Notes: generated by a model not told the origin, from the sequence alone. DNA of 64,000 bases from an uncultured Gemmatimonadaceae bacterium (GCA_963829055.1 CAWHHI010000005.1:288001-352000); one strand, 5' to 3'; shown: positions 1 through 41,930, counted from the first letter of the stretch. Program-made: numbers and translations.

Positions 1-1478
1 TGAAGGCAAAGTGTGGCTTCGCGTCCGTCCGGAGTCGGCCGTCGTCGTTCTGAAGAGAGCCGTCGAGCGTTACCGCAACACGCGATACCTGCTCGAAATG
101 GATCGCGCCGATCTGCTGCTCGCCAACGCGTACGTGTCCTCTGGACAGATGAAGGAGGCGCGAAGCGCGTTCAGTGCATCGCTCGAGGAGACGGAACGGC
201 GCCGGGCGAAGATCGATGACAAGGAGAACCGGGCGCAGTTCCTCGACAAGGCGCGCCCTGTCATCGACAGAGTGGTCGCGTTCGATCTGGAGCAAGCGGA
301 TACGGTCGGCGCGCTCGAGTTTCTCGAGCACATGCGCGCCCGTGTCCTGCTCGATCGCGTGGGGCGGCGACTGGCTGCCAGTGCGCAGGCGGCCGTCGCG
401 ACAGCCGATCGCCGACCTGCAGCGTACCATTCCCGCGGGCACGAGCGTGATCAGCTACGCGGTGCTGGACAGCGAGGTCGTGTCGTGGGTGCTGCACGAC
501 GACCGTGTGACCATGCACCGGACGCACCTAACGACGTCGCTGGAGGGGCTGATCACTCGCTTCACGGCGTTGATCGAAGCGCGATCGTCGGCGACGGAGG
601 TGCGCGCACTCTCGGCGCAGCTGTACAGCGTGCTCATCGCGCCGCTGCGAGACGACATCGCCGGGGACACGCGGCTCATCGTCATACCGGACAAGTGGCT
701 GCATTTTCTTCCGTTTTCGGCGCTGTTCGACGCCCGTGCCGGGCGCTTCCTCGTCGAGTCGTTCGAGATCAGCGTCGCGCCGAGCATCGCGCTGTACCAA
801 CAGTCGGCGGCGCGGTATGCACAACTCGGCACAGCCACTCCGAGCGTGCTGGCCGTGGGAAATCCGTCGTTCGACGCAGCGACGTTCCGGCTTCCTCGGC
901 TCCCTGGGGCGGAGCTCGAGGCTGCGCGTGTCGCGCAGGGGTACGACCACGCGCAGCTCATGGTGGGTGCGGCGGCGACGAAGCGCGCTTTTCTTCGCGA
1001 GGCGGCCACGTCGGCGGTGGTTCACTTCGCGGGGCATGGCGTCGTCAACTCGAATGCCCCCCTCCTCTCCTACCTGCTGCTTGCGCCCGAACCTAACGTC
1101 GGCTCCTCCGGAGCGCTCTACGTGCGCGACCTGTTCGACATTGCTCTGCCGCGAACGCGGCTCGCGATTCTCTCGGGATGTCACACCGCCGCCGGACAGC
1201 TATCGGAGACTGAAGGAGCATCGTCCCTCGCGCGCGCACTGTTCGCCGCTGGTGTGCCGGTGGTGATCGCGAGTCTCTGGGCGGTCGATGACAGGGACGC
1301 CGCGGAGTTCTTCGTGAGCTTCCATCGTGAGCTCGCGAGAGGCACGGACCCGGCGGCCGCCCTGCGAGCCACGCAACTCCAGTGGCTCACGAAGGAGGAG
1401 GGCGGACGACAGACACTGGCGACGTGGGCGGCGTTTCAGCTGTTCGGTGCTACCTCGGGATCAGGCCGTGGCAGGTGA
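1..1478 (+). CDS. TPR + CHAT (caspase-like, clan CD) protease, 5'-truncated by window edge; frameshift near 360-400
   Basis: The helical part in ORF 11..1096 (ALEFLEHMRARVLLD) continues in the ORF 174..1478 frame with CHAT motifs LIVIPDKWLHFLPFSAL, HFAGHG (catalytic His), LSGCHT (catalytic Cys) and SLWAVDD. Confidence 0.9.
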
Positions 1479-1607
1479 GTGAGGGAATCGAAGCCGTTCG
1501 TCCGTCTACAGCTATGAGTACGAGGTGTTGGAGTCGTGACTGATCTCGGCACGGCGAGGTGCCAAGCAGCCACTCGCAGTCACGTACGATGACCGAGGAG
1601 GTACGCC

Positions 1608-2636
1608 GTGCCGGTTCGAATCATTTTTCGTGGGCTGGTTCTCTTTAGCATCGAGAACGAGCGCGGCAAGAACGGTCGCATCGTAGCGCAGCTCGTCGAC
1701 TGCAAGCACATGATGGGCGGAGGCAAGAAGCCTAAGAGTCCGCATAAGGATCTCCATACGCACACCCCGGATGATTCAGATCGGACCGGACGGGGATGGT
1801 CGGTGACGGCTCAGCCGACGACGAAGCGATGGCTGGTATGAAGAGCGCCGCTCGGGGCCATCAGCCCGCGAACGTCCTTCCGCCGACCGCGATTACACGG
1901 TGACATCCAGATCGGGGATCCGAGTTCTGGCGCGCCGGTGAAGGTCGCCGACAGCTATCGCGAGCACTGTCCGAACCTTTCTCACATTCTGAACAACAGG
2001 CCCCGCCACATCCTCCCGAAGGCAATGAAGAAGCCAAGCTTGAAGCGCAACAAGTTCGTCTCGCGGACCGTGACGATCTACGGCGGAACGATTCGCGTGA
2101 ACGAGGTCGTGGCGTGGGATGGCGGCGGCGTACCCTCTGGCTAGCTCGCCTAACAACGGAAGCCGATTCACGTCGCCCGCCGAAGTCAGCTTTCTGACTT
2201 CCACGGTCCGCGGCCATATGGCGAGCGAGTGCGTGGTCGAGGTTGATTCGGTGGACATCTCGAACGGGCAGAAGGGGCTACCGAAGCGCGTCGATGAAGG
2301 CGAGATCCTCATCACGAACCTCCCCCCGTGAGCGGCCCAAGCCAGTGCCCTGGAGTCTTCACTTCTTCTGCCTGTTTCAGGCTGCCGGATACCGCACCCG
2401 CAAACATCGACGGGAACGAACTCGATTGGTTCAAGGAATTCGCGCGCGGCGTACGATCCGGGTCGCGTTCGCGGAAGACGAAGCGTTCCTGGGCGAGGAC
2501 GGCGCACACCGGGTTCCCGTTCCCCTACCTCGACCCCGAAACCGCCCTCACGCCGCTCAACCCGATAACGCCACCGCTCACTGACCCCTGGAACCGCCCG
2601 CTCTGCCCACAGGGCGACAATAGCCCACATCACTAG
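1608..2636 (+). CDS. Uncharacterised protein (module partner X1), several frameshifts
   Basis: GAGGAGG RBS at 1595-1601 before the GTG. Consecutive ORF pieces 1608..1841, 1938..2144, 2119..2331, 2243..2584 and 2328..2636 stitch into one ~330 aa protein, MPVRIIFRGLVLFSI...RPLCPQGDNSPHH. Confidence 0.65.
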
Positions 2637-2668
2637 CCGATCCCGCTGAGGCGTTAGGCATCGCGTTC

Positions 2669-3646
2669 GTGTCCACCAGCGTCTTCCGCGAGCTTCCGGG
2701 CCTGAGCGAGGCGTGGACGGTCACGCGAGGTGCCAACGCCGTCGTGGCCGTCGTCGACGAAGCGGTCGACGTCCACCACCATCCGGAGTTCGTCGGCCGA
2801 GTCCTGCCCGGTAACGATGAAGCGCGTCAGGCAGCGGGCGATGGTTCGTACGTCCATCGCCCGCACGGCGCCAAGGTCGCCGGTATCGCGTTGGCCAACG
2901 GTCCGCACGTCACCGGCGTCGCACCGGAAGCGCAGCTCCTCCCCGTCGCCGTGAACGCACTGAGCCGCATCATCGGTCACCCCTCCGAAGCCGATGCGAT
3001 CCGATGGGCGGCGGCCCACGGTGCAGATGTCATCTGCTGCGCGTGGGCACCTCCGGACCTGACGGGAAAACGGGGACGTCTCCCGTCACGGACGCGTGCG
3101 GCGCTGGACTACAGCATCGAGTTCGGACGCGGCGGCAAAGGCTGCGTCATCATCTTCTCCGCTGGAAATGTCGGCCGCGACATCAGGCTGAACGGCTACG
3201 CCAGTCACCCCGGCGTGATCACCGTGGGCGCCTGCAACTGCCACGGTACCCATCCGTCCTATAGCGGCTACGGCGAGGCGCTCTGGTGCGTCTTTCCGAG
3301 CAACGATCCCGGTGATCACGTCGGCGCGTGGATGACCTATCTCACGACGGCGCCCGTAGGATCGCTGTTGAATGGCGACGCCTACTACACCACGCGGTTC
3401 GGCTTCACCTCCGCCGCCTGCGCCGGCATCGCGGGAATCTGCGCGCTCATCGTCAGCGCGAATCCCAACCTCACCGCGCACGAAGTGAAGCAGGTACTCC
3501 GGAGCTCCTGCGAGAAGATCGACGCCTCGAGCGGTACGTACGACGCGCGCGGACACAGCCCGCTCTACGGGTATGGACGTCCGGATGTAGTGCGCGCCGT
3601 GCGCCTCGCACGAGAACATGAGAAAGCGCAAACCGCGTCCGTCTAG
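2669..3646 (+). CDS. S8 family (subtilisin-like) serine peptidase, no signal or propeptide
   Basis: VAVVD (Asp), HGAKVAG (His), FSAGN (oxyanion Asn), FTSAAC (Ser), C-terminal YGYGRPD. Confidence 0.9.
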   Translation: MSTSVFRELPGLSEAWTVTRGANAVVAVVDEAVDVHHHPEFVGRVLPGNDEARQAAGDGSYVHRPHGAKVAGIALANGPHVTGVAPEAQLLPVAVNALSRIIGHPSEADAIRWAAAHGADVICCAWAPPDLTGKRGRLPSRTRAALDYSIEFGRGGKGCVIIFSAGNVGRDIRLNGYASHPGVITVGACNCHGTHPSYSGYGEALWCVFPSNDPGDHVGAWMTYLTTAPVGSLLNGDAYYTTRFGFTSAACAGIAGICALIVSANPNLTAHEVKQVLRSSCEKIDASSGTYDARGHSPLYGYGRPDVVRAVRLAREHEKAQTASV

Positions 3647-3758
3647 ATCCTATAGATCGGAGTGGTGTTCCGGCGCGATCGCCGTGACGTCCGATCACTG
3701 ACCTCCAGCACGGCACGTCGGCATCCGATGTCCGAATCTCGGACGGTGAGCCGCGCTC

Positions 3759-5129
3759 GTGGAGCGTCACGGGATGAGGCGACGCATGAGTGATCATTTT
3801 GCCAGTATTGCTGACGCCCTGAGCCTCCGGTACAGGCTCGAACGAACGCTGCAGAGCGGCATGGCCGCTCACGTGTATCTCGCTGAAGAGCGTGCGCTGA
3901 GGCGGCGCGTCGCGGTGAAAGTCTTGCGCGACGAGATGGCCGCGACCGTCAACGCCGAGCGATTCCTCGCCGAGATCCGTGTGTGTGCGCGTCTCCGGCA
4001 TCCGAACATCGTCCCCGTGTATGAATCGGGCGAGGTCGACGGGTTACCGTATTTCGTCATGCCGTTCATTGACGGGGAAACACTGCGCACGCGGCTCGCG
4101 CGCCTCGGCCGCCTCCCGCTGAGCGAAGCGATTTCCATCGCCCAGGACATTGCTCGCGCGCTCGACTTCGCGCACCGTCACCAGATCGTGCACCGCGACA
4201 TCAAGCCCGAGAACGTGATGCTGTACGGTGGGCGGGCCCTCGTCCTCGACTTCGGCATCGCGCTGGCCATGGACACCGTGGAAGCATCCCGTTACACCAT
4301 GCCGGGGCTCACGTTAGGCACGTTGCCCTACATGAGCCCGGAACAGGTCGGCGGCGAATCACCGGTGGACGGGCGCAGCGACATCTACAGCCTTGCGTGC
4401 GTCATCTACGAGATGCTGAGCGGGCGTCCGCCGTTCACCGGATCGCTATCGGCGGTGATCCGGCAACACCTGGGCGCCCAGCCGCGCCCGCTCGCCGAGG
4501 TCTGTCCGGGGCCGTACCCCAAGATCGGGCGTGTACTCTTGCGTGCACTCGGCAAGACGCCTGACGCTCGCTACGACAGCGCCGGTTCGTTCATCTCGGC
4601 GCTCGTCGGCGCCGCGCCACGCGTGCGAGTCATCGGGCAACGTGTGGCGGTGATCTCGTTCACGAACCTCGGTCCGTCGCCGGCGATCGACACGTTCAGC
4701 GACAGCGTCGGTGAGGAGGTCGTCGCGGCACTCCGACCCATAGACGGAATTGCCGTGGTTGCAGGAAGCTCGATCGGCGACACTTCAGTCGACGTGCACC
4801 CCGCGGAGATCGCACGACGTCTCGGTGCCGACGTGTTGCTGTTCGGCAGCGTACGCAACGACGAGGCTGTCGGTCACGTCCACCTGTGCGCGGTTCTCCT
4901 CGACGGCCGAAGCGGTCGGACACTATGGGCCGGCGCGTTCGCCGGGCCGTGTCACGGTGGACCGTACCGGGAGTGGCAGTCGGTCATGCAGTTGGCCGAT
5001 GCGGTAGCCACCACGCTCGGAGTCAAGCGCAACGGGTCACCATGCGAGCGCAGATTCTGCGACGCAACGCGGCGCGGTGACCAGAATGAATCGAACCCAG
5101 GGTCCACGGGGCGGACGGCAGCGCGTTGA
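3759..5129 (+). CDS. Ser/Thr protein kinase with C-terminal TolB-like (TolB_N) domain
   Basis: VAVK, HRDIKPEN, DFG, YMSPEQ and SDIYSL motifs, followed by an RVAVISFTNL...VGEEV TolB_N-like segment. Real start may be the ATG at 3787. Confidence 0.9.
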   Translation: MERHGMRRRMSDHFASIADALSLRYRLERTLQSGMAAHVYLAEERALRRRVAVKVLRDEMAATVNAERFLAEIRVCARLRHPNIVPVYESGEVDGLPYFVMPFIDGETLRTRLARLGRLPLSEAISIAQDIARALDFAHRHQIVHRDIKPENVMLYGGRALVLDFGIALAMDTVEASRYTMPGLTLGTLPYMSPEQVGGESPVDGRSDIYSLACVIYEMLSGRPPFTGSLSAVIRQHLGAQPRPLAEVCPGPYPKIGRVLLRALGKTPDARYDSAGSFISALVGAAPRVRVIGQRVAVISFTNLGPSPAIDTFSDSVGEEVVAALRPIDGIAVVAGSSIGDTSVDVHPAEIARRLGADVLLFGSVRNDEAVGHVHLCAVLLDGRSGRTLWAGAFAGPCHGGPYREWQSVMQLADAVATTLGVKRNGSPCERRFCDATRRGDQNESNPGSTGRTAAR

Positions 5130-7740: not shown

Positions 7741-7761
7741 CGCACGAATCGATGAGGCGAT

Positions 7762-8547
7762 TCAGCGCGATTCGAGGAACCGCACGAGCGCCGCGTTGAA
7801 CACTTCCGGCTGCTCGACGTTCGAGAGGTGCGCGGCATCGGGTATCATGACGAGCTCACTGCCGTCGATCGCTGCGTGGAGCTCGCGCGCGAGCGCGGGC
7901 GGCGTGGACTGGTCGAGCTCACTGCCAACGATCATTGCCGGCACGCGAACCGTCGTCGCCGCCTCTCGAAGATCGGCACCGCGAAGCGCCTCGCAAGCGG
8001 CGATGTAGCCGTCGGCGTTCGTCGCCTCGATCATCCCCGCGATGAGCGCGGTGGTCGCCGGATCACGCGATCGGAACTCCGCCGTCAGGAACCGCGCGAC
8101 AACCTGATCACGAACCGCGGCGGTACCGCCCGCGCGAACCGCCGCGATCCGTGCGTCCCAGCTCTCGTTCGTCCCCACCTTCGCGCCGGTGTTCGCGAGC
8201 ACCACGCCGGTGACCCGCTCCGGTTGATTCGCCGACAGCCATAACGCGATCACGCCGCCGAGCGAGCAGCCGCACACGACGGCCCGATCGATCTCGAGGT
8301 GATCCAGCAGCGCGATGAGGTCCCGCGCGAGACGTTCGATGGTGACGGGTCCGCGGGGCGGAGCCGAGACCCCGTGTCCGCACGCTTCGTATCGAACGAC
8401 GCGGAAGCGATTCTCGACCGCCGGCATTTGCCGATTCCACAGCCGGTGGTCCGTGCCGAGCGAGTTGCTGAACACGACCGCGGGAGCATCGGTTGGCCCG
8501 TCTACCCGGTACGCGATACCGGTGTCTCCGATCGCGCCGCGGATCAT
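7762..8547 (-). CDS. pcaD: 3-oxoadipate enol-lactonase
   Basis: Alpha/beta hydrolase: VFSNSLGTD, GCSLGG, AAHLSNVEQP; lies in the pca operon. Confidence 0.92.
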   Translation of the reverse strand: MIRGAIGDTGIAYRVDGPTDAPAVVFSNSLGTDHRLWNRQMPAVENRFRVVRYEACGHGVSAPPRGPVTIERLARDLIALLDHLEIDRAVVCGCSLGGVIALWLSANQPERVTGVVLANTGAKVGTNESWDARIAAVRAGGTAAVRDQVVARFLTAEFRSRDPATTALIAGMIEATNADGYIAACEALRGADLREAATTVRVPAMIVGSELDQSTPPALARELHAAIDGSELVMIPDAAHLSNVEQPEVFNAALVRFLESR

Positions 8548-9881
8548 ACCGCGTCGGCCTGTCGCATGTCGCGCCACGAGCGGAGCGCGCGATCGATGAG
8601 CTCCTGTGTGCCGCCGAGGTACGACGCGGCGTCGAATGCCCGAATGAGCTCGCCCGACGTGAGCAATCCCGACACCCGCGTGTCGAGGCGGGTGGCCTCC
8701 TGCAGCGAGATCCGGTCACGAAACGCCCGCTCGACGAGCCCAGACGTTAGGCGCATGGCCTCGGGACGACCGACATGTGGTGCCAGCGTCGTCGCCAGCG
8801 ACTCGGCCATCAGCGCACCGGACGCGTCGTCGAGGTGCATGCGCATGCGGTCGGTGTACACGTCGAGCGACGCCACGGCGGAGCGGAGGTGCACGGCGGC
8901 GCGCATCGTGTGCCGAAACGCGTCCGGGATGACCGTCCATTCCGTCTGCCATCCGCCCGCACCACGCTCGTGCTCCTGCGACATCGCGGAGAGCATGACC
9001 GGAACTGCTCCGATCGCGAGGTTGGCGGCAGCGATGGCGTTCGTCGCCTCGACAGGGTTCCGCTTCTGCGGCATTGCCGACGACGTCCCCTTCCCGGCCA
9101 CGAAACCTTCGGCGACCTCGGCGACCTCCGTCTGCGACAGGAGCACGAGGTCATGCGCGATCTTCGCGATGACGCCGGCGGTCACGCCTAACGCCGCGAC
9201 GACGCTCGCCGGCCGGTCACGCTCTGCGTGCCACGGCAGATCCGGCAGCGTCAGATCCAGCTCGGCGGCCAGGAACCCCGCGACCGCCGACCCGCGCTCT
9301 CCCAGCGCCGCCAGTGTCCCCGCGGCGCCCCCGAATTGAAGCACGAGCGCGTCGTCGCGAACCCGCCGGAGTGTGGATATCTGTCGCGCAATACTGCCCA
9401 GCCAACGCGCGGCTTTCAGACCGAACGTGATGGGAACCGCCTGCTGCAACAGCGTTCGTCCGGGCATCACCGACATCCGGTGCGACTCGGCCAGCGTCGC
9501 GAGCGTGTCGGCAGCGTCGGCGAGGTCATCCGCGAGTTGCGTGAGGCCGTCGCGCATCTGGAGGACGAGCGCTGTATCGATCACGTCCTGACTCGTCGCG
9601 CCCCAGTGCACGTAGGGGCGCGCCGCGATCGGCACGTGCGCGATGAGATGCTGGACCAGTGGGATGGCCAGCGTGCCCGCGTGAAGCGCGTCGCGCTCGA
9701 GCGTCGGCACGTCGACCAGTTCCGCGCGACACGACTCGGCGATCGCGGTCGCCGCCTCGTGCGGGATGATCCCGGCGCGCGCCTCCGCCCGCGCGAGCGC
9801 AGCCTCGAAGCGGAGCATGAACGCGACGTGCGTGGCTACCGAGAAGATCCGGTCCGCGTCGCTCACCGTGGGCGCGTTCAC
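8544..9881 (-). CDS. pcaB: 3-carboxy-cis,cis-muconate cycloisomerase
   Basis: Fumarase/aspartase superfamily motifs HWGATSQD, GRTLLQQA, SSAMPQKRNP, QEHERGAGGWQTEW. Confidence 0.93.
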   Translation of the reverse strand: MNAPTVSDADRIFSVATHVAFMLRFEAALARAEARAGIIPHEAATAIAESCRAELVDVPTLERDALHAGTLAIPLVQHLIAHVPIAARPYVHWGATSQDVIDTALVLQMRDGLTQLADDLADAADTLATLAESHRMSVMPGRTLLQQAVPITFGLKAARWLGSIARQISTLRRVRDDALVLQFGGAAGTLAALGERGSAVAGFLAAELDLTLPDLPWHAERDRPASVVAALGVTAGVIAKIAHDLVLLSQTEVAEVAEGFVAGKGTSSAMPQKRNPVEATNAIAAANLAIGAVPVMLSAMSQEHERGAGGWQTEWTVIPDAFRHTMRAAVHLRSAVASLDVYTDRMRMHLDDASGALMAESLATTLAPHVGRPEAMRLTSGLVERAFRDRISLQEATRLDTRVSGLLTSGELIRAFDAASYLGGTQELIDRALRSWRDMRQADAV

Positions 9882-10411
9882 GGGCGCGATGACGTGAAAT
9901 CGAAGAACACGGTCTCCGCGTCACCCTGCAGGACGATGTCGAACCGATACGCGGGCGTTAGGCTCGCCCCGGGCTCCAGTGTGGCCACCAGCGTCCGACG
10001 ACGGCCTTCGGGAACGCGGCCGAGGATGGGGTCGGCGTTGGTCGCGGGCTCGTCCTGGAAGTAGATGCGGGTGAACAGGTGGTTCAGAAGTCCGCGCGCG
10101 AACACGGCGACCGACAGGTGCGGTGCCTGTGTCGTCGTGTGGTCGAACGGGATCGGCCGCGGCCTCACGGTCGTGAACGAGAACCGTCCGTGTTCGTCTG
10201 TCCCCACGCGCGCAAAGCCCGCCGCCTGCCATACCTCGATCACCGCGTCCGGCACGCCAACACCGTCGCCATCCAGGACGCGGCCGTCCACGCGGATGAG
10301 CGGACCAGCTGCGTCGCCCGCGATGACGTCACGGCGGACGTCGTCGCGCAGCATGCAGTCGTGAAAGAATGGGCCCACGGTCTGGGACGGGGTCACGAGG
10401 TGCGAGCTCAC
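9878..10411 (-). CDS. pcaG: Protocatechuate 3,4-dioxygenase alpha subunit
   Basis: TPSQTVGPFF, QAPHLSVAVFARGLL, TRIYF, YRFDIVLQG..ETVFF. GTG start overlaps the pcaH stop (GTGA). Confidence 0.93.
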   Translation of the reverse strand: MSSHLVTPSQTVGPFFHDCMLRDDVRRDVIAGDAAGPLIRVDGRVLDGDGVGVPDAVIEVWQAAGFARVGTDEHGRFSFTTVRPRPIPFDHTTTQAPHLSVAVFARGLLNHLFTRIYFQDEPATNADPILGRVPEGRRRTLVATLEPGASLTPAYRFDIVLQGDAETVFFDFTSSRP

Positions 10412-11157
10412 GCCGCGTCCTGGGAGCGCGTTTCGAACACCGTGGCGCTCGGGCCCGCGAGGACGATGTCCCAGCGCCATCCGAGCGCCCAGTGCGCCTC
10501 GGTCACGTCGTGCGCGTAGGCCGCGACGAGGCGCGGGCGCGCGCGCTCCGGTACCGCGTTGAAGATGGGATCGAGCGGAAGCAGCGGATCGTCCGGGAAG
10601 TACATCTGCGTTACGAGCCGCTGATGCCACGACGGCGCGAGCACCGAGAAGTGAATGTGCGCCGGCCGCCACGCGTTGTGATGGTTGCCCCACGGGTACG
10701 CGCCCGGGCGGACAGTGAGGAAGCGGTATTCGCCGCTGTCGGCCGTTAGGCACCGGCCCACGCCCAGGAAATGGGGATCGAGCGGACCCGGCCAGTCATC
10801 GCGCTTGTGGATGTAGCGGCCGGCCGCGTTCGCCTGCCACACTTCCAGCAGCGCGCCATCGACTGGCACGCCGTTCTCATCGATGACTCGGCCGGTGACG
10901 ATGATCCGCTGACCTAACGCCTCGCCGCCCGTCCCCGCGTTGCGGGTGAGGTCGGCGTCCTCGGGCGTCACGAGCGCGGTGTCGTGCCGCGGCGTGATCA
11001 GCTCGGATGCCGTCAGCGGGACGTCGACGAGCGGCAACCGCGGCGCGCGCCGAATCGTCGAGCGGTAGGCCTCGTAGAGGTACGGCGGAAACACGGCCGC
11101 GTCTCCGCGCACGATCTCGCCGATGGTCGTGATCACCGGGGGATCACCGGGGCTCAT
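10408..11157 (-). CDS. pcaH: Protocatechuate 3,4-dioxygenase beta subunit
   Basis: WQANAAGRYIH, PGAYPWGNH, WRPAHIHFS and LVTQMYF (Fe-ligand Tyr/His motifs). ATG at 11157. Confidence 0.95.
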   Translation of the reverse strand: MSPGDPPVITTIGEIVRGDAAVFPPYLYEAYRSTIRRAPRLPLVDVPLTASELITPRHDTALVTPEDADLTRNAGTGGEALGQRIIVTGRVIDENGVPVDGALLEVWQANAAGRYIHKRDDWPGPLDPHFLGVGRCLTADSGEYRFLTVRPGAYPWGNHHNAWRPAHIHFSVLAPSWHQRLVTQMYFPDDPLLPLDPIFNAVPERARPRLVAAYAHDVTEAHWALGWRWDIVLAGPSATVFETRSQDAA

Positions 11158-11561
11158 CGCCGGTCGGAAGGACCGTTCTCGCCAGGGCGAACGCGCTGTT
11201 GGCCGCCGGGATGCCGGCGTACACGGCGACGTGCAACAGCGCCTCACGAATCTCCTCCGGCGTCGCGCCCGTGTTCCGCGTCGCCCGGAGATGCAGTTCC
11301 AGCTCCTCACGCCTGCCTAACGCAGCCAGCAGCGCGATCGTGATGAGGCTGCGGGTTTTCACGTCGATCCCCTCGCGCGCCCACACCGAGCCCCACGCGA
11401 CCTCGGTGATGAACTGCTGGAACGGCGCGTCGAACGCCGTCTGCGCCGCGGTCGCGCGATCGACGTGCTCGGGACCGAGCACCGAGCGACGCACGCGCAG
11501 GCCGTCCTGAAAGCGCGTGCTGTCGAGGCGCGGTACCGGCGTCCGGCTCGTCGTTAGGCAT
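11144..11561 (-). CDS. pcaC: 4-carboxymuconolactone decarboxylase (probable frameshift near 5' end)
   Basis: GLRVRRSVLG...FQQFITEVAWGSVW...RSLITIALL...HVAVYAGIPAANSAF. Confidence 0.9.
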
Positions 11562-12774: not shown

Positions 12775-12776
12775 CT

Positions 12777-29925: not shown

Positions 29926-30713
29926 TTCCGTGCGGGCTGAATGCCCGCTGCAGCGCGGCGGTCACGTCGAGACCCGTCAGCCCGACGAACCGGCCGATCT
30001 CCTGCACGGTGACGCCGCCGCCGACCAGGAAGCGCTGGCCGCGACTCCACTCACGCCCGGTCGTACCCCACGCGACAGCGAATGAGGGAGTGGCGAAGGG
30101 AACGACCCGGATGCTCTGCCCCACAGCGAGCGAGAGCGGGACGGTGATGTCCGCCGTCCAGTGCTGCCTCTCGCCGAACGCGGCGTCCGCCCACCCCGCG
30201 CCGAACTCCAGCGTCGCCGTTCCGGTCGCGTCGTTCTCCGTGAAGAACGGGACGCGAAGGAAAGGGCGTGTGGTGACCAGGTAGTTGCTGTAGCGGATGC
30301 CCGCCATCAGCCGGTTCGTGTCGCACGAGGATTCAATGCAGAACTCCCCGTCGCCGCGCTGATACCCCACGGTGCCCGAGAGCAGCGGGCCGCCCTCGAT
30401 CTGCAGGTTGCTGACGAGGCCGTATGACGTCAGGCTTCGCCCCGCATCCAGCGCGCGCGAGCCGTACTGCAGACGAAACCCGAACGAGCAGTCTGTCATC
30501 ACGGCTCGTCGGCATCACTGGGCCGACCGGCGTCAGGGCGCCTAACGGCGTGCTCGCGATCGCCGCCAGCGTGCGGGAAAGTCCCGTCTCCGATTCCGTC
30601 GACTGAGCCCCGAGCATCCGGGACACGAGTAGCGCCAGCGACACCGATCCCGCGATGACGTGCGACCGGCCAATGGTCCAGCGGGTCCAGCGGGCGCGCG
30701 GTATGGTTCGCAT
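29920..30713 (-). CDS. Secreted hypothetical protein, beta-barrel-like; frameshift near 30490; C-terminus fused to DUF4239 fragment
   Basis: Signal-like N-terminus in ORF 30333..30713 continues in ORF 29138..30502 with alternating amphipathic strands (FGFRLQYG, LEFGAGW, FLVGGGVTV). Confidence 0.55.
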
Positions 30714-30716
30714 CGG

Positions 30717-31872
30717 CTATCTCCGCCCGCGCAGCCACCGTGAATACACTTCACCGTGCACGTGAGCGTCATAGCGATACACGCGCAGCAGTACACTGTC
30801 GCCCGCGGCGAAATCGAGACGCATGAAGCCGCTCGTCGCCTGACCTACGTACAGGCTCTGACGGAGCCGCGCCGCGCATTCGCCCTTGCCGATCGATCCG
30901 GCTCCGCTCACGAGCACGTAGCTCGACGTCCGCCCTTGCAGGACCTGGAGACTGTGGTCGTGACCCGCGGCAAAGATCGAGCGGAGGGCGCGTCGCGAGC
31001 GCGGCATTCACGGAGTCCCGCATCATCGTGTAGTTCTTGCCGAACAGATCCTGGCTCGTGTTCGCCCAGCGCCGGAACAGCGCGAACGCGCCACAGTAGC
31101 CTCCGTGCGGACCGCCTGTCATCAACGGATGGTGCGCGGCGACGATCACCGCTTGACCCGGGCGGGTCGTGCGCAGGGAATCGCGAATGGCTTGCGTGAT
31201 CTCGCCGATGGTGTGCGTCGTGCAGCCGGTCGCGCGATCATCCGAGGCGGAGTCGCGGACGATGTAGTTGTGCAGCCACCATTGCGTGTCGAGCAGCACG
31301 AGACGTACGCGCTCCCTGTCCACGACGACGGGCCCGGGGCAACCGTTAGGCGGCACCACCATGACTGTCGCGCCCGGGTTCTTCGGTCGCTGTGGAACCA
31401 GCGCGCCCTGGCGTCTGATGATGAACAGACCGTCGGCCGCGGTGGCGGCACCGAAGAATCCGCCCTGGCCGCCGTCGGCCCAGTCATGGTTCCCGGGCAC
31501 GAAGATGCCGGTGGCGCCACTGGGCACTGCCCGGATCTGCGCGTCCAGGCGACGCAACACGTCCGCATAGTTCGTGGCGATCTCCGGAGCGGTTCCGGCG
31601 GGGTACACGTTGTCGCCGAGGAAGAGGATCGTCGCGCGAGGCCCGACCGCCGCCGCATGCATTGCGAGCGAGTCCAGCACGGTCGCGGGCAAACGCGGGT
31701 CAGGCTCTCCGGCATCCCCAATGAGGAAGATGGTCTCGACGATCTCTTGAGGGGTCGGCGTCGGTACTCGCGCGCTTCGACAGCCAGCAATCGCGCCGAT
31801 CGCGCCGAGCATCAGCGCGAGTCGGCCGACGCGACGTGCGCGTCGATGGACTTGAGACGTCCACTTCGACAC
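30717..31872 (-). CDS. Calcineurin-like metallophosphoesterase, lipoprotein (frameshift near 30980)
   Basis: Lipobox IAGC; IGDAG, LGDNVY, PGNHDW, AHHP and AAGHDHSLQV. Confidence 0.88.
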
Positions 31873-31907
31873 TCGAGCCTCGTGTCTTTCAGGTTGCGGA
31901 TGACGTA

Positions 31908-34625
31908 TCAGAACAATCCGGCCTTCAGGTAAAAACGGTGCTGATCGCCCCTGGCGTAGGCCATGCTGATCGTCGTGCCTAACGCCTCGACCCACGCGCC
32001 GCCGCCGAGGCCAGTGTGCCATCCGCCGTCGCTTTCCCCCGACGACCACACTCGGCCGGCGTCGGCGAGCCCGAAGATCCCGGCATTCCAACGCAGAAGG
32101 AGATTGACGGTTCCCACCGGCACCCGAAGCTCCGTCGAGCCATCGACCGACGCGTCGCCACTGAACCGCTCCGACGTGTAGCCGCGCACCGTCGACCATC
32201 CGCCGATCGACGCGGCATACTGGACTGGGAACGCGCCGGACGTCATGCTCGCTCCGCCGCGCACGGCAAGGTGCACCCTGTTCGGCAGCAACGGAACGTA
32301 CACGCTCCCCGCGGCACGTGTCGTCGTGAATGACTGCGACTGGTCCCAGAGCGGCGGGAACCCGACGCACGTCCGCCTCGAGTCGCCACCCTCGCATCGG
32401 GACGCCATCCGAGTCCGTTCGATCCAGCTCGAGGCTCGCGCGAACGCCCACGTGCCCGAACGCGCTGTTGCCAGGTCCGCTCGAGCGTCGCCAGCGGCGA
32501 GTTGGGAGCCGCGTCCGGATCGAACCATGAAACTACGGGGCCGGCTTCCAGGCGACCCGCGATGGGTCGTACGAGCGAGGTCGCGTCTTCTCTGAACGCC
32601 TCCGTTTTGTTCGTCTCTCGTTCGCGCCATCCGAGGTGAAGTACCACGGCTGGCTCGAAGGCCATCACGGTCTGATTCACGAGACTCGCGTCCCGACTGG
32701 CCGAAGGCGTCGTCGTTACCGTAGCCATAGAACCGGAACGCCTCGAGTCGTGAGACGCACGCGCCGCGACCGTGAACGCGACGGGGGAATTCTCCCGTCG
32801 ATAGTCCGCGTCGGCGTGCAGGGCAAATCGGCCATTCCGCATGCCGGCCAATGCCGTTCCCTTGACCTCCCACAGATGAGGAAGCCGGCGGAAACCATAC
32901 GACCGCAGTGAACGGCTGACGCCAACGATGACGCCGGCACCTGTCTGATATGACCCGGTCGGCGCCCAACCGCCGGCGCTGCCCCAATCAGGTCTCCACG
33001 AGCCCCAGACCCTCATCCCGTTCGCCACCGTCGGCTCCCGCCACGGTCGCTCGCTCACGTGCGTGCCGCGCGCTCGCACGAACTCGTTCTCACCATCGGA
33101 GTCGTAGAAATGCGTCGCGCCTCCGCCGGCCGAGTCGGCGAGGACGTCGTCGTCGTATCCGCCGATCACCCTGACGGTGATGGCGCCGGAAGCAACGCCG
33201 CGAACCGTCGCGTGATCGGCTCCGCCGAGCAGAAAGACTCTCGACCTCCTCTGTCTCGGAGGGAATGAACGTTCGCTCGTAGAACGGTCGCCGCGGCGCC
33301 TCCGCTCCGCCGTCGTTCTGATTCTGCGACGACTCCGGGGAGCTCGCCGTGGTGCGGACGTCTTCATCGCCGCCAATGGTGACGGTGACGCGCCCATCCT
33401 CGTGCCTGACGATTTCCGCGCGCTCGTCATCCTCGGTGCCGTAGATGTCGACGTCCGTCGCGAGCTGCCCGTAGAGCGCCATGGCAACGGATGGTATTGC
33501 GTCGCGGCGAGTCCGAAGCACGGACCGAAGTCGCGCTGGCGCGGAGGTCTGTTCACGCCACGCGGCCGGCAACGCCGCGATCCCCTGCTCTATGACCTCG
33601 TCGGTGATCGCCGCCTGGACTCGGCGCGCCACTGCGGTGAAGTCGTCGCGCGTGAGGCGCTGGAGCAAACGCCGGTCGTGGAAGTGCGTGCTGTACGTGA
33701 GCGCTTTCAGATCGTACGTCGGAGCGAAGGTGACCACCTTCGGATAGAACGATCGCGTGAGGAATCGGTTGACCAGGCCACGCGCATCCATGAGCGCCCA
33801 GTCGCGATCCTTCGCCAGTGCACGCCATTGGTATTCGGTCGAGTCACCGAATCGAACGAAGTCGGAGTTGTCGGGGGTGCGATCGCCGTCGTTGATCAGC
33901 AAGTCGATCAATCGGATCGCGAGGAACTCCTTCTCGTCGAATCGGTGGGCACGGCTCGATCGCAGGTCCTCGAAGAACTCTTCGGATCCGGTGATCTTTG
34001 TCGAGCCGGCAAACCCTGGCTTATCGTTAGGCGCTTCCTCGGGCTTGAGCTCCATGGTCCCGAGCATCCCAGCCAGACTGTCACGATAGACGCCGAGGCG
34101 CGGATCGTCAGCGAGGCGGACCATCGTCGGGTCGAGGTGGAGCGCCTTGATGGCGTCGAGCAGCGGAGGGACGACGACCGGCGCGCCCGGGAAGAGCGCG
34201 CTCACCTGATCCTGGATGACGCGTCCGGTGGCCGTCTCACGGAGCGCCCGCGGCAGGGTCATCACCGGAAACTTGTTGACCGTTCGAAACCGGTACTCCT
34301 TCCATCCGGATTCTTCCTGGAGGTGCAGGGTGATGCTCTGATAGCCACCCCCGCGCTCGAGGACTTTGAGTCCGCCGGCGAACGTGGAGAGCTGAAGAGA
34401 CGGTACCGAGACCGGTGTCAACCAGACGTCGCGCCATCCGGCTCCGAGCAGCGTTCGCTTGAAGCCGTCGGCCGCGTAGTGCTGGCCCGTTACGGTCGTG
34501 GTGAGACTATCCCTGCGTTTACCGCCCAGTGAGTCGACGGGTTTTTGCCCGTCGGCGTCGATTGGAAGGAAGGCAACGGTACCTGCTGCGGCAATTCTGA
34601 ATGTCGCGACTCGCAATGCGCCCAT
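31908..34625 (-). CDS. BamA/TamA (Omp85) family outer-membrane protein with large N-terminal domain; several frameshifts
   Basis: Signal peptide; GGGYQS, DLLINDGDRTPDN and KDRDWA in the N-domain; C-terminal barrel with IGG..TVRGY..ERFSGD, DAGRVW and terminal Phe. Confidence 0.82.
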
Positions 34626-36025: not shown

Positions 36026-36149
36026 TGTGCATCACGAGACTATTCCGCTACCAAGGCAATGTCACAGGGAAAGTGCCGTGCAACGGGATCGACTGAGTCA
36101 ACTGCTCCAGGATGGTCGCGCGCGACCCCGCGAAGATCGCCGACAGCTC

Positions 36150-36475: not shown

Positions 36476-36635
36476 CGTCGAGGTCGAGAAGCGCCGCACG
36501 CGTCCCGACGACGAGCGCCGCCGGTACTATCGCATTACCCCGTTCGCCAACTCGGTCGCACGCGCGGTGGTTCGACGGCTCCTGCAGCTCGTGCGTCACG
36601 CGCAGGCGCGCGGTCTCACGCCACGAGCAGTCTGA
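36474..36635 (+). pseudogene. C-terminal half of a PadR family regulator
   Basis: IVEVEKRRTRPDDERRRYYRITPFANSVARAVVRRL...stop; no start codon or HTH. Confidence 0.75.
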
Positions 36636-36754
36636 CCTCTTCGAGCGTCGCCGGCGGGTTCGGAGCGGGCCATCAGCGGCGTTAGGCAGAAACCGAACGG
36701 GCGCGAGTTATTGCCTGTATTGCAGATGGCTAGGGACGGAATCGAACCGCGGGC

Positions 36755-37654
36755 TCAGCGGAGGAGTTCGCCGAGCCGCTTCATGTCGAGACGTCCATGG
36801 CCGATCTCGCTGTCGTGTCCGGGAATGCCGTCCGGCCGATAAGCGGACAGCCTCAACAGCTCTCGCACATCGCCCGGGGTCAGACTGGGCTTCTTTCGCC
36901 GCGCCAGCCATACCGCTGCGGTCACCATCGCGGCAGCGAAGGATGAACCGCTAAGGTACTTGTAGTCGAAGGGGTCGTCCCCGATCACGGTGAGAATGCT
37001 CTCTCCGGGCGCCGAAACCCGAATGTGCTCTCCCCTGTTCGAACCAGATGCCGGTCTGTCCTCCATGTTCGTGGCGCCGACGGCGATCACGTTAGGATTG
37101 GCTGCCGGGTAGATCGGTCCGTCGTCGGGATCGTTGCCGCTGCCCATTGCGGCGACGACTACAACGCCATTTCGCACGCACGCCGCGATGGCGTCGTCGA
37201 GATCGCGCTGGTTCGGTAGTGCGATGCTCAAGCTCAGATTGACGACTGGAAGCTTCAACCGGGCGACTTCGAACAATGCCGTTCGAACGGCTCCGAGGTC
37301 GAATCGTTCGTCGGCATCCCATGCGCTATACACGCGCACTCTCGCGGAGCAGCAGCCGTCCATCCTGCCGTCGGCATCCCCTTCGTAGTCGTCGCGCCGC
37401 GCGGCAATGACGGCAGCAACGGCCGCGGCGTGCGCCGCCCGAGAGGTACATGACGGCGCAGGTTTGCGAGTGACGCGGCCAGCCAGCTCCCGGTGGTTCA
37501 GGCCCTTCTCACCCCGGTCGATGACCGCGATTTCCCCCGGATCTGGTCCCGTGTCGAGCGTCGGCCAGACCGCTGGAAAGCCGCACCGATAGAGCGCCCA
37601 CTGCCTGTCCGGGTCGGGTCCCGTCTGGACTCCTGAACGCAATGGAGCAGTCAT
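36755..37654 (-). CDS. S8 family serine peptidase, no signal or propeptide, divergent motifs
   Basis: DPDRQWAL...VW mature-type start, IAVID (Asp), HAAAVAAVI (His), VVNLSL, YPAANPNVIAVGAT, SAPGE, SGSSFAA (Ser) and GHGRLD. Confidence 0.88.
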   Translation of the reverse strand: MTAPLRSGVQTGPDPDRQWALYRCGFPAVWPTLDTGPDPGEIAVIDRGEKGLNHRELAGRVTRKPAPSCTSRAAHAAAVAAVIAARRDDYEGDADGRMDGCCSARVRVYSAWDADERFDLGAVRTALFEVARLKLPVVNLSLSIALPNQRDLDDAIAACVRNGVVVVAAMGSGNDPDDGPIYPAANPNVIAVGATNMEDRPASGSNRGEHIRVSAPGESILTVIGDDPFDYKYLSGSSFAAAMVTAAVWLARRKKPSLTPGDVRELLRLSAYRPDGIPGHDSEIGHGRLDMKRLGELLR

Positions 37655-37726
37655 CGGACTCGCGGCAGCTCAGCCGCGCACTCCGTCCCACTGTGAACGG
37701 ATGCGCGGCATGTCGCGTCGATCAGA

Positions 37727-38711
37727 TCAGGGGAGTCCGAATTGTCCGCCCGTGCACCCTGTGCTTCCCGTCGTGCGCGCTGGCCTATTCGTGAGCTTGG
37801 GATACGGAAACTTGTGCCCGCGCCCGCCAAATACCTCGAGAAGGCTACCGCCATCACTAGCCTCAAACAAACGGAACAGCCATTTGAAGTCGACGTCGTC
37901 CTTCTGGAATCTGTGCTCGAACTCCTTCCATTCGAGCGGGTTGGTCTCGCAAAGGTTGGCGATCTTGAGTTTGATGACTCCTTTCCGTCGCCGCCGGGGA
38001 CCGGCCTAAGCGTAAGCGACGGATTCTCTTTACCCGGTTCCCAACTCTGAATTCGGATATTGATGGAAGCCCTCTGGGAGCGAGTCCGTTTTATTGGTCG
38101 CGTCCATATGATCGAGCCCGCCCAGTCAGCGTCGGGCTTGTCCCAATCGGCGGTCTTGACCTGTTGCGCGGCCGGATTGCTCCTGCCGGGTCCGCCGATT
38201 GTTGCTGCGGTGAGCTTACCTCCTCGCAGGAGTCGTCCGAACGTTTAGCTCTGTCGGGCGGGGTGGCTGAATCCAGGCCGACCTTGAGCTTGATCTGAGG
38301 CTTGTAGACGGAGAGGTCCGGCAAAGGGAGGGGGTCTGGGACAAGCTGGACGATCGATCCCTGTGACTCCTCCGGCTCGAAGAAGAGCTCTTCGCGGCTG
38401 AGTCGCCGCACGACTTGGAATCGTGGGCCATCGGCGACGAAGCCGGGCCTTACTCTCTTGGCAGATTCTGGCTCAAGGTTCGCCAGGTCCATCAGCAAGT
38501 ACGGAACATGACGCGCACCTACGTCTTCATCCTCATGGTGGTTGCGGACCCGCTCATTTGGCACGCAGGTCGGGATCAGAACGCTGACGGTCGTCTCTTG
38601 CCCGGCCGACTTCGCGCGATCAATCACGTACAGACAGACGCCCGCAAACTCGACGGACAACGTGACCTCGTTCGTTTCCGACACGGACGTGTTGCTCTTG
38701 GTAGTGGCCAT
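37727..38711 (-). CDS. Uncharacterised protein (module partner X2), frameshifted
   Basis: GGAGG RBS + ATG at 38711 (MATTKSNTS...VEFAGVCLYVI). Stitched frames end ...LKIANLCETNPLEW...DFKWLFRLF...FPYPKL...GCTGGQFGLP, stop at 37727. Confidence 0.65.
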
Positions 38712-38742
38712 CTCGCCCTCCCGGTCAATCGTGGTAGCCTGA

Positions 38743-41700
38743 CTAAGGACCCGTGTAGACGAACGCCCCCCACGCCCTCGGAGACCGCAACTCCGGACGC
38801 CGCGAGCTGAGCGCGTCCTGCTGCGCCAAGCGAAGCGCCTCGGCGGCGGGCATACCGCCTGCAAAACGGTTGTGAAACGACACCAGCAGCTCGGTTGTCG
38901 CCTCGTCGTCCACGTCCCACAACGTGCTCACCGTGGCCGGCGCGCCCGCGCGCAGGAAGCTGTACGCCAGGCCCGCGATCGCGCCCATACGACTCCGCCG
39001 CGGGTTGAGCGTGCTGCAGGCCGACAACACGACGATCTGCAGATTAGACAGACGCAGTCTTCCAATTTCCGCGGCGCGCAGTATTCCCACCTCGCCCGCG
39101 TGCTGGCTGGCGAGGGCGAGGTACGATAGCTCGGGTTGATCGCCGTTTGCCACCGCGTGACCGGCGAAGTGAAAGACGCCGTACTTCGGAAGGAGCTCCA
39201 GCACTGAATCACGCGACGCCTCGGCGCCCCTCAGGAGCTTCCCTCGACCGTACTGCCGAGCGACCTCCTCGGCCTCGCGGAACGCACCGGGAAGCGGTGG
39301 GAGCCCAGCCGCCGACGCGGCGTCGAGCTTCGGGATTCCCGATCACGAGCGCGCTCGAACGCGAGTTCCGTCGACGCAGCCCTCGACGCTGCGACGAGAA
39401 AGGCGGCGCTCGGCAGCGTACGAACCCGATAATCCTGGAGTACGTAGCGACCAGTCCCGCGATTCCAGAGCGCGGCGAACGGCACGCGAGCCAGCTCTCG
39501 ATCCGGCACGACGACAATCTCTCCACGCCCAGCCAGCTCGCTCGCGAAAGGAGCCACGAGCAGATCGAACAAACGTGCCCGCGCGCTCGCGGTATCGACA
39601 TCGGGGTTACCCATCTCGCGCGTGAACCGCTCAACGAGCTGGGCGACGGAGTCCCGACGCACGGCAACCGTATGGGGCCGCGACCCGCGGGAAGACACGA
39701 TCCACATCGCGAGCGTGTCGGGCAGCAGCGCATACTCCACGAACACCGCGTTGGCAGGCAGCAGCTCGCGGATGCGCGTTAGGCTCGCGGGCGTGCGCCC
39801 ATTACCGAGCGCGAGGCGCGCGTCGGGAGCCCACGCGGCGACGCGCCCACGCTCCAGATATGCAAACGCCGAGTCGGACCTCTTGTTGGCGAGCTCGATC
39901 CGTATTTTCGCGTCGAAGACGCGCTCGACCGTCTCATACAGCGTGGCTCGCGTCTCTGGCAAAGCGAAGGACGCGCTCTGTCGCTCGATGGCATCGATGG
40001 CTTCCTGCAGCCGAGCGCGGGCGCCAACCTCGTCGCCGGCTGACTGTGCTGCCACAGCCTCCTGGTAGAGCGCCTCCGCGAGGAACCCGTCGGTCTTCAG
40101 GCCCCGGTAAACGCTAGCAACGTGTGCCAGCGTCCGCATGGCGGCCTGTGGATCCTCGGCACGTTCGATTGCGCCGCGAACCAGGAGCAGATCCGCAAGC
40201 GTGCGATCATGCCCCGGTCCCGCGACAATGCTGTCCACCGATTGCAGCGCCTCATCGAGCTCCGCGCGGGCGGCGTTCAGGCGTCCGAGCGCGATGAGGT
40301 CCTTCGCCCGGAAGACATGCGCGAACGCGATATCTTTCGGGCGATTGAGCGTTGGCACTACTTCGAGCACCTCGTCCGTGATGGCCAGCGCGGCGTGGCT
40401 CAAGCCGTCGGCGCGTGCGTAGGTGGCAACGGTCATTAGGAGGTTAATGAGGTTGCGATGACCGGCGAAACGGTGAGAGACGCCGGAGCCCGACCAGCGC
40501 TTCGCTCTGTCCAGCGGGGATCTGTCCTGAGAACTGAAGCCCCTCTGCCAGGAGATAGGAGATCGCGCCGAGATTCTCCGGCTCGCCCGCTTTCTCGAAG
40601 AATGGCTCCGCTTCCCGGTAACGATTGTTCGCGACATCGTAGGCGCCGCGAAGGAGCTGTGACACGCCGAGGAACCAGAGGGCTTTGCCGACCAGCGCCG
40701 GCTCGTCTGGACCCGCAGTGCGTCGCACGTCGAGTAGCAGCCGGTCAGCAATGGTGTAGTGGCCACGAAAGATCTCTGTCGACCCGCGGAACAGCGCGGC
40801 CCATTGCGCCAGCGGTGACCCAGCGTCCCGAAGCGTTGGCTCCGCGTGTGCGAGTGCCGCCACCGCGTCGTTTTGCGCCCACGTGAAGCTTCCCGTCATA
40901 CCATCCACGAACTCCACGTGAGCGCGGGCGAGGGCGGCCAAGTGTACGCCGGTCCCGTGAGTGCGTCTCGAGCGCGCGGACCGCGAGAATCACCGTGTGA
41001 TCCGCGTTCATCGCCCCAAGCATCTCAGCGATCGCGCGGACTCGGCGCAACGCTTCCGCCGCAGCCGACGCTGTCGCCGCGCTGGACGGCGTTGCCCCAC
41101 CGGCTAAACAACGTGAACGAGGCGTCGCGAGCGCCCTCCGGCCAGCGCTCGACACGCGTGCGAAGCTCGCGACGCGCCGAACTGTCGTCACGCGCCGCCA
41201 ACGAGTCGATGGCTTCGGGCCTCGCGTCGGTGTCGAGACGTGTGCGAACGAGTCGTAGTCGCGCTTCCCCCTCGGCTCTCCAAGGTGCGCGGCGCTCGGC
41301 GGCCGTGTACCGCGTCCAGGCTCGCTCCGCATCCCTGAGCAGGTAGAGTCGCTCGAGGATCAGCGCGCGATTGAACAGCACTGCGGGGAGTGTACTGTCA
41401 CACGCCATCGCTCGCTCAATGGCGTCGAGCGCCTTGAGCATCGGGAGAAGCTGCTGGTCCCGCTCGGCCACCGCGAGGTAGGCAGCGGCGAGGTCATTGA
41501 GGAAACCGGCATTGTTCGGTGCAAGACGATTCGCGCGCTCCAGGCCTTCGACCGCCTGATCAATGCCTTGTGGATTCCCTTCCAGCGATCGAAGCGCGAG
41601 GAGCCCGTTCGCGTGGAGCGCGCGCGGAGTGGAGTCCGATCGGAGCCAGCGCCGCGCAGCACCGGCGATGCCGGCAATGTGCTCGAGACTCTTGGAACGT

Positions 41701-41930
41701 GCCGCGGGCGCCTGGCCGCACCGCTCGCGGGTAATGCGCGCTGTGCCGTCGCTCGTGTCGCACGGGTGCCAGTTGGCTTCGCCGGCCAGGGTCGCGGCCA
41801 TGAACCGGTCGCGGAGGAGCGCGCGCTCGAGCTGCTGGGCGCCGGATGCATCGTCGCGCGTGGCGCGACATGCGAGGAGTAGAACAAGGCCGGCGCACAC
41901 GCCGGTGCTCACCCCGGCGCGGCCGTTCAT
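38743..41930 (-). CDS. Large TPR + CHAT (caspase-like) protease, ~1060 aa, several frameshifts
   Basis: Pieces 41025..41966, 40444..40941, 39231..40766 and 38743..39204. TPR-like LNDLAAAYL and LFNRALILERL; CHAT motifs VVPDRELARVPFAAL, HFAGHA, LSACST and TLWDVDD. Confidence 0.88.

Follow-up and report, generated by a model that had tools for sequence, protein, structure and literature searches.

Two copies of a three-gene arrangement, encoding in turn a TPR-CHAT caspase-like protease, a protein of no recognised family (X) and a subtilisin-like protease of the S8 family, lie in a stretch of 64,000 nucleotides (nt) from an uncultured Gemmatimonadaceae bacterium (GCA_963829055.1, CAWHHI010000005.1:288001-352000). 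This whole stretch, positions 288001-352000 of contig C5, is called the window below; the assembly to which it belongs has 7.78 Mb in 20 contigs, a G+C content of 66.7% and a completeness of 85.9%. An initial annotation of the window described the triplet as a recurrent three-gene module. The module is, however, not free-standing: the triplet belongs to a cassette of six genes, in the order sigma factor of the extracytoplasmic function (ECF) type, U (a protein with one hydrophobic helix), CHAT, X, S8 and Ser/Thr kinase, and this order is kept in about 40 sequence clusters and in two families of Gemmatimonadota. The cassette is rare, conserved and undescribed, probably a variant of protease-linked ECF sigma signalling, and its X protein matches no solved structure. 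Because the triplet sits inside a sigma/U/kinase cassette, ECF-sigma signalling is its best-founded role. What the initial annotation had observed was confirmed, and what it had made of the observation was partly supported.

Genes of the window were read from stop-to-stop frames and from Pfam scans. The two triplets, each co-oriented as initially described, occupy 2-3646 (+) and 41930-36755 (-), and their genes are separated by short gaps of 129 and 32 nt in module 1 and of 31 and 72 nt in module 2. When module 1 was compared with module 2 by tblastn, the CHAT domains were the sole match, and a permissive tblastn returned low-complexity noise only. The CHAT1 and CHAT2 domains are about 37% identical and the S8 proteins about 30%, and X1 and X2 cannot be aligned by BLASTP (E 0.31). 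Judged from these sequences, the two modules are old paralogues in a conserved, operon-like arrangement and are not the product of a recent duplication, as had been supposed.

To see how far the arrangement is kept elsewhere, 4 genome loci and 56 metagenome loci (60 in all) were fetched with X1 only as the bait, and were scored with our own profiles for CHAT, S8, X1 and X2. Among the 45 loci with at least 300 nt of room, 44 had CHAT directly upstream of X1 and co-oriented with it; in clusters at 95% identity the count is 27 of 28, and the one exception is an artefact of overlapping open reading frames (ORFs). For S8 directly downstream of X1 the counts are 40 of 45 loci and 29 of 32 clusters, and the misses were the variant in L033-L035, which is considered below, and two X1 fragments. 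Relatives of X are thus enriched beside both protease genes, much more than chance would give, as expected of the conserved operon proposed initially. In dozens of sequences from soil Gemmatimonadaceae, CHAT, X and S8 occur together.

The remaining genes of the cassette were recognised by a Pfam scan of 42 flanking ORFs from 14 loci, followed by profiles built from those ORFs. The sigma factor passes the NCBIfam model TIGR02937 (sigma70-ECF), scoring 55.6 and 63.2 bits (cut-off 42.9). It is long, about 250-280 residues, its regions 2 and 4 being separated by an insert, and it matches the superfamily model only. U has about 300-350 residues and belongs to no family; in all four proteins scanned, a single hydrophobic helix separates an N-terminal part of some 65-115 residues from the remaining 220 or so. 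Of three U proteins, one gave a weak match to zf-HC2 (E 0.0014, under the cut-off). From its position and topology, we infer that U is an anti-sigma factor. Sigma and U immediately precede CHAT1 in 18 of the fetched loci and, in addition, in the window genome (L067) and in a second genome, G068 (L072). In the window genome they lie just upstream of the window, sigma at 8373-9107 and U at 9238-10164 of L067. The exceptions are L007, L011 and L020, where a second triplet, instead of U, stands upstream of a complete CHAT1. A kinase frame comes right after S8-1 in the window and in 14 other loci. G068 (99% complete, 2.9 Mb) belongs to the other family; its cassette contains all six genes, ordered as above, and an additional frame of 193 residues, which lies between S8 and the kinase at 11159-11737 (+) of L072. 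U was not found in the genome G006 (77% complete).

The second, X2-type triplet is variously placed. Two uninterrupted loci of the same genus as the window illustrate the main forms: L005 has the tandem CHAT2-X2-S8-2-CHAT1-X1-S8-1, and in L006 the two triplets converge. An X2-type triplet adjoins the first in tandem in L005/L007/L011 and in L020, and convergently in L006/L008, L027, L029 and L031, while L046 and L052 end within a convergent S8 gene. A single triplet only was seen in other loci with 6-7 kb on each side (e.g. L010, L038 and the L009 group). The X2-type triplet was never accompanied by a sigma and U of its own. A kinase gene is divergent from CHAT2 in L027, L029 and L031; in the window, no Ser/Thr kinase lies upstream of CHAT2. 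A rearranged cassette was also seen in L009, L045, L047, L048 and L050, where CHAT1 comes after a U-like gene, another U lies with sigma convergently downstream of S8, and the kinase is divergent upstream.

Both S8 proteins of the window pass PF00082, scoring 124.9 and 87.1 bits (cut-off 21.8), and S8-2 is 88% identical to its orthologue in L005. The Asp/His/Ser triad and the oxyanion Asn (D10, H43, S225 and N144) are invariant in all 29 rows of alignment A3. The S8 proteins consist of the catalytic domain alone, about 300 residues, and begin 7-30 residues ahead of the catalytic Asp (about 26 in S8-1). They have neither a signal peptide nor an I9 propeptide and differ on both counts from classical secreted subtilisins; the initial annotation had described S8 as leaderless. 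In the window the frames leave no room for either element, because they extend no further than 5 and 15 codons upstream of the starts (15 in S8-1, before a GTG). In most loci the open frame of S8 begins at or before the stop codon of X. The nearest NCBIfam model is that of the mycosins of the type VII secretion system (T7SS), which is matched under the cut-off.

CHAT1 is encoded by a gene of about 1100 codons that starts about 1.8 kb upstream of the window, its N-terminal part lying at 10171-11998 of L067. Against PF12770 (cut-off 24), CHAT1 scores 226.6 bits, the two CHAT2 fragments 159.8 and 36.1 bits, and intact CHAT orthologues 203.9 and 215 bits. The His-Cys dyad noticed initially is indeed present in the translations of both window copies (HFAGHG...LSGC and HFAGHA...LSAC), and its His and Cys are conserved in 15 of 15 CHAT1 orthologues. 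A hydrophobicity scan gave an Arg-rich start followed by a hydrophobic helix at the N-terminus of CHAT1 (five of five scanned). CHAT2 of the window begins with MNGRAGVSTGVCAGLVLLLAC, which is lipobox-like (LLLAC), and a lipobox-like [LV][LV]AC occurs in four of four CHAT2 proteins. The CHAT proteins are therefore predicted to be exported or anchored in the membrane. By the same scan, X1, X2, both S8 proteins and the kinase after S8-1 have no N-terminal hydrophobic or signal segment. This would place CHAT outside the cytoplasm, and X, S8 and the kinase inside it. The placement of X and S8 is a prediction, since PopC, an S8 protease without a signal peptide that is held in a complex by PopD, can nevertheless be periplasmic (PMC6434023).

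X is the least familiar member of the cassette. X1 proteins have about 310-400 residues and X2 proteins about 290-350. At E <=1e-3, a large protein collection yielded 99 relatives of X1 and 70 of X2, all of them unnamed or "hypothetical" and without a Pfam domain; sources are named for a few only, and these are metagenome-assembled genomes of Gemmatimonadaceae and Longimicrobium. The X1 type is rare, with 125 representatives among 1.84 billion in an exhaustive profile search and occurrence in 2 of 401 genomes of an even sample of the phylum, the window genome included. Neither Pfam nor NCBIfam gave a match for X. One match to X2 from genome G026 was set aside (E 4.5e-4, 74 residues within a frame of 703), being probably unrelated. 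The L006 protein (2882-4084, -) and about nine other X1 proteins of alignment A1 carry a C-terminal extension of 60-90 residues with a Lys/Ala-rich basic tail (for example ...KKTAGKKPS...KKTAAKKGRKR); X1 of the window is without it.

AlphaFold models built from the alignments were confident and beta-rich, with a predicted local distance difference test score (pLDDT) of 87.6 and a predicted template modelling score (pTM) of 0.89 for X1, and 84.6 and 0.88 for X2. The structure searches were made with whole-protein models only. Foldseek against the PDB gave template modelling scores (TM-scores) of about 0.15 or less for both models; a wide VIA-align search of 48,161 chains gave a best Z of 2.2 for X1 and no match for X2; profile searches of the PDB sequences gave nothing below E 0.047; and a search of the ESM Atlas gave scores of at most 0.79. 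Neither a gasdermin nor any other solved fold could be assigned to X by Foldseek or VIA-align, although for whole models such a lack of matches leaves a known fold possible. Since a confident model finds no match among solved structures, a structure of X might show a new fold.

X1 and X2 are likely to be remote homologues, because common landmarks align in register when a broad X1 profile is used (probability 57.6%, E 1e-4, 209 columns); with a narrow X1 profile, hhalign gave a probability of 1.2%, and among 270 stored proteins none was matched by both profiles. The landmarks are an N-terminal strand (VRIxFRGLxLF in X1, LSVEFAGLCLY in X2), a His cluster, a strand-helix pair (N[YFL]..PW..DFQWLF and NLCE..LEW..DFKWLY), the motif PFPY or LPYP, and a Cys near the C-terminus after a low-confidence linker. 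In both models this appears as a stretch of low confidence followed by a confident C-terminal strand that bears the conserved Cys.

The CHAT and X genes of the window are interrupted. The initial annotation had reported frameshifts, and it understated them: when intact orthologues were mapped to the window and to the stretch just upstream, the CHAT and X genes showed at least 11 lesions within the window, in about 8.8 kb. CHAT1 has one frame change in the window, between 358 and 408, and one upstream, and in tblastn the intact CHAT1 of L005 is matched by one piece in frame 2 and another in frame 3. In X1, a TGA stands in frame at 1839-1841 and the frame shifts at least three times, and the gene appears as five fragments over three frames; its profile matches 1593-1838, 1842-2141, 2101-2328, 2198-2581 and 2298-2633, which cover profile positions 1-51, 75-149, 146-195, 229-292 and 251-320, respectively. 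CHAT2 has four frame changes, and the intact CHAT2 of L029 falls on five pieces at 75-81% identity. X2 has at least three frame changes, with its three pieces in frames -3, -2 and -1.

These interruptions are probably errors in the local consensus of the assembly. Part of module 2 is present in 20 public runs from soil and rhizosphere, and short-read contigs from 4 of these 20 runs were compared with the window over 36700-42000, a range that covers module 2. The contigs are 98-99% identical to the window and are without its extra letters at 12 or more places, all at or near frame changes (Table 1); at 39335, contigs of three other runs are without one letter. One contig of 428 nt differs from the window by 6 substitutions and 25 gap letters, a pattern typical of consensus error. 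Assembly error is therefore likelier than decay, since indels far exceed substitutions against near-identical contigs. Removing 21 listed letters reopens the X2 frame at the first junction only, whereby the profile coverage grows from 2-132 to 2-162. Among the fetched loci no near-identical contig (above 85% nt identity) was found for either module.

The opposite reading is that the window copies are true pseudogenes and that neither module works any longer in this lineage, with only S8 usable. Several observations fit real decay. Both S8 genes are free of lesions; X1 has PWSLHFFCLF where the family has PWGLDFQWLF, that is, altered invariant residues in addition to its in-frame TGA; and a contig of run X3 agrees with the window at 39335. 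The lesions do not reflect a genome-wide error rate, because long frames elsewhere are intact: the assembly holds 96 open frames of at least 1000 residues, the window itself has intact frames of 1113 and 1067 residues, and CHAT genes elsewhere in the genome are uninterrupted. On the other hand, at least two unrelated genes of the window, an S9 peptidase gene and a kinase-TPR gene, are split as well, the assembly is incomplete and in 20 contigs, and within each piece the amino-acid identity to orthologues is still 75-93%. Decay accordingly seems a doubtful explanation, though one to be taken seriously. Whichever reading holds, sister populations carry open CHAT and X genes. Indel errors are probably clustered at certain places of this assembly, and genes lying there should not be called pseudogenes without the reads.

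Table 1. Positions of the two modules and of related features in the window
Feature	Position	Strand	Basis
CHAT1, C-terminal 490 codons	2..1478	+	Pfam CHAT PF12770, E 5.6e-67; TPR_19
X1	1608..2636	+	GTG start at 1608 preceded by ribosome-binding site GAGGAGG; TAG at 2636; own X1 profile
S8-1, catalytic domain only, uninterrupted	2669..3646	+	PF00082, E 5e-36
Soluble Ser/Thr protein kinase right after S8-1 (cassette gene 6)	3759..5129	+	Pfam Pkinase, E 4e-42
S8-2, uninterrupted	36755..37654	-	PF00082, E 1.6e-24; single tblastn piece; triad conserved
X2	37727..38711	-	tblastn of P0133, three pieces; own X2 profile, three fragments
CHAT2, full-length TPR-CHAT, ATG at 41930	38743..41930	-	PF12770, E 1.3e-46 and 6e-9 on two fragments; TPR_17
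Letters absent from other contigs	39335, 38253, 38230, 38162, 38150, 38090, 38083, 38076, 38074, 38070, 38067, 37978		contig comparison

Of the two split genes outside the modules, the prolyl-oligopeptidase gene at 54389-56558 (-) shows Peptidase_S9_N in 55044-56558 and Peptidase_S9 in 54389-55423, which overlap, and the kinase-TPR gene is divided between frames 59098-59976 and 59726-61939 (+). The latter belongs to a second, separate sigma/kinase pair, in which the gene of a TPR-containing Ser/Thr kinase (to 61939) comes after an ECF sigma gene of the PF07638 type at 58497-59156 (+). A run of genes at 7765-12774 (-), comprising an alpha/beta hydrolase, Lyase_1 (cycloisomerase-like), a protocatechuate dioxygenase beta-like protein, a carboxymuconolactone decarboxylase and an FAD monooxygenase, looks by its gene content like an aromatic-degradation cluster of the beta-ketoadipate pathway. 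In about 2.5 kb at 30514-33090, just one short frame (30720-31007) passes the codon-bias filter, and there is no Pfam match.

The cassette was also compared with named systems. With PADLOC-DB 2.0, BovA matches the CHAT domains weakly (1.4e-7 and 7e-4) and a generic 'subtilase' model matches at 1e-10; the scan of X covered window fragments only, and the seven fragments were unmatched save for one chance-level ZorC (E 0.006). A literature search in full texts found no description of the cassette or of X, though an X-like gene may already be tabulated for the context of the sigma group ECF54. The initial impression that this is no named system was upheld.

In the type III-E CRISPR Craspase, the TPR-CHAT protease Csx29 cleaves Csx30, which controls an ECF sigma factor. 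The cassette resembles it in that a TPR-CHAT protease is tied to an ECF sigma factor and to a neighbouring protein of otherwise unknown family. It differs in that CHAT is predicted to be exported here and is cytoplasmic in Craspase, and in that S8 and a kinase are added. Neither Cas7-11 nor other cas families were found in 37 ORFs of the window or in the 42 flanking ORFs of the 14 loci, and these ORF scans did not extend to CRISPR arrays.

The closest likeness is to DdvS and DdvA of Myxococcus. The ECF sigma factor DdvS is held by the transmembrane anti-sigma factor DdvA, whose periplasmic TPR-CHAT part has an intact dyad, and the CHAT domain of DdvA is proposed to act as its own site-1 protease, clipping a linker and opening the way for RseP (PMC11506125). 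Similarly, the cassette has an ECF sigma gene followed by a single-pass membrane protein and by a TPR-CHAT protease with its dyad, predicted to be extracytoplasmic. In contrast, U, with one transmembrane segment, and the anchored CHAT are encoded by separate genes in all loci that have both, whereas the two are fused in DdvA. The cassette also adds X, S8 and a kinase, and it has no island of CRISPR or of the cyclic-oligonucleotide-based antiphage signalling system (CBASS) nearby; the likeness is one of gene context. A further parallel is offered by ECF54 of Actinobacteria, for which, according to a review, proteolytic control has been proposed since a subtilase and CHAT are conserved in its context (PMC8999054). 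There, as here, the sigma gene adjoins a subtilase and a TPR-CHAT protease. The ECF54 context described belongs to another phylum and includes a carboxypeptidase; none was seen in the cassette, which contains a kinase and the anti-sigma-like U.

Taken together, the cassette may be a proteolytic ECF-sigma signalling unit and a split relative of DdvS/DdvA. In this model, U would be the substrate of the exported TPR-CHAT protease, and cleavage of this anti-sigma-like protein outside the membrane in which it sits would free sigma. X, S8 and the kinase, whose frames abut or overlap, might form a cytoplasmic arm, in which X would be the bound partner of a prodomain-less subtilase, as inhibitor, chaperone or substrate, and would restrain or feed S8; the kinase could serve as a second input. 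CHAT2-X2-S8-2, which has no sigma or U of its own, would join the same circuit as a paralogous arm of sensor and effector. We put this model forward tentatively: as a complete account, including cleavage of U, pairing of X with S8 and the assembly-error reading of the interruptions, it is possible rather than probable.

Several results weigh against the model. Two of the three U proteins are without zf-HC2, and U has no Pfam or NCBIfam match above threshold. No common pair of -35/-10-like words was found above shuffles upstream of 9 sigma and 4 CHAT2 genes. The prediction of CHAT export draws solely on the hydrophobicity scan and the motifs. In addition, the metagenome loci L033-L035 keep CHAT-X without S8-1, and CHAT2-X2 follows about 330 nt after X1. 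X is also the most divergent part of the triplet in 15 loci, with a mean pairwise identity of 0.41, where the CHAT domain has 0.61 and S8 has 0.66, and its divergence tracks that of CHAT (r 0.77) more than that of S8 (r 0.46), the 15 loci being kin and not independent. Because the divergence of X follows CHAT and because L033-L035 lack S8, a link of X with CHAT is favoured over one with S8.

The last two results are what would be expected if, as initially proposed, TPR-CHAT were a gated switch that cleaves X, and X in turn activated S8 or were processed by it, with defence, cell death or conflict as the output. The rarity and patchy distribution of the X family agree with such a role, and the C-terminal Cys strand behind its low-confidence stretch in the models would make a plausible cleavable latch. 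A simple cascade of this kind, however, needs an unexplained meeting place, because CHAT has export signals and X and S8 have none, and the cassette's own pair of sigma and anti-sigma-like proteins is a more conventional target for CHAT. Bacterial and fungal gasdermin systems are similar in that one or more proteases, caspase-like or subtilisin-like, stand beside a protein of about 300 residues with a possible C-terminal latch (cf. PMC8851545, PMC13475620); in contrast, the whole-protein models of X match no gasdermin in the PDB, and PADLOC has no match for X among the window fragments scanned. No defence genes were found among the 37 window ORFs and the 42 flanking ORFs, the neighbours being metabolic, transport and regulatory genes. 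Apart from the rarity of the family, the rapid divergence of X and what CHAT proteases generally do, no observation speaks for defence or cell death. The cascade therefore seems unlikely. Of the roles initially suggested, signalling has gained from the ECF sigma gene in the cassette, while defence and cell death have lost ground.

A more elaborate form of the cascade would make X the founder of a new fold, namely a latent effector of two beta-sandwiches lined with His and Glu, latched by the Cys strand and switched by a relay of two proteases, the exported TPR-CHAT sensor and then the intracellular subtilase, under the control of the ECF sigma factor and the Ser/Thr kinase. This picture is improbable; if it were true, it would describe a new protease-gated system of conflict or cell fate, present in soil bacteria and comprising two diverged arms of sensor and effector in each genome.

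The remaining alternatives give the subtilase a different place. By analogy with PopC/PopD of Myxococcus xanthus, X might hold S8 in the cytoplasm until a signal arrives, after which exported CHAT and S8 would process targets in the envelope or outside the cell; S8, and perhaps X, would reach the periplasm without a signal peptide, and sigma and the kinase would control expression only. In both cases a signal-less subtilisin-like protease is encoded with a partner (PMC6434023), and S8 without signal and propeptide, the abutting or overlapping frames of X and S8, and the T7SS mycosins as the closest, though sub-threshold, NCBIfam model all suit this reading. In contrast, PopC has an N-terminal part, of unknown function, before its subtilisin domain, S8 here begins 7-30 residues before its catalytic Asp, the Lys-rich tail of some X1 proteins looks cytoplasmic, and CHAT, sigma and kinase do not feature in the account of PopC/PopD; such envelope maturation is rather improbable. 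It is also conceivable that the subtilase, CHAT or both degrade the sigma factor and keep it off until a signal stops proteolysis, as has been proposed for ECF54. The unusual length of the sigma factor and its insert would fit this. The ECF54 proposal concerns sigma factors of Actinobacteria without an anti-sigma factor (PMC8999054), whereas here the anti-sigma-like U always accompanies sigma; moreover, CHAT is predicted to lie outside the cytoplasm. We regard control by degradation of sigma as very unlikely.

TPR-CHAT proteases have recently emerged as switches of ECF sigma factors, as in Craspase and DdvA. Should the split relative of DdvS/DdvA proposed here be correct, the cassette of these soil Gemmatimonadota would be a naturally split version of such a switch, in which the anti-sigma-like protein stands apart from the protease and each step, from sensing and cutting to release and output, is separable by gene.

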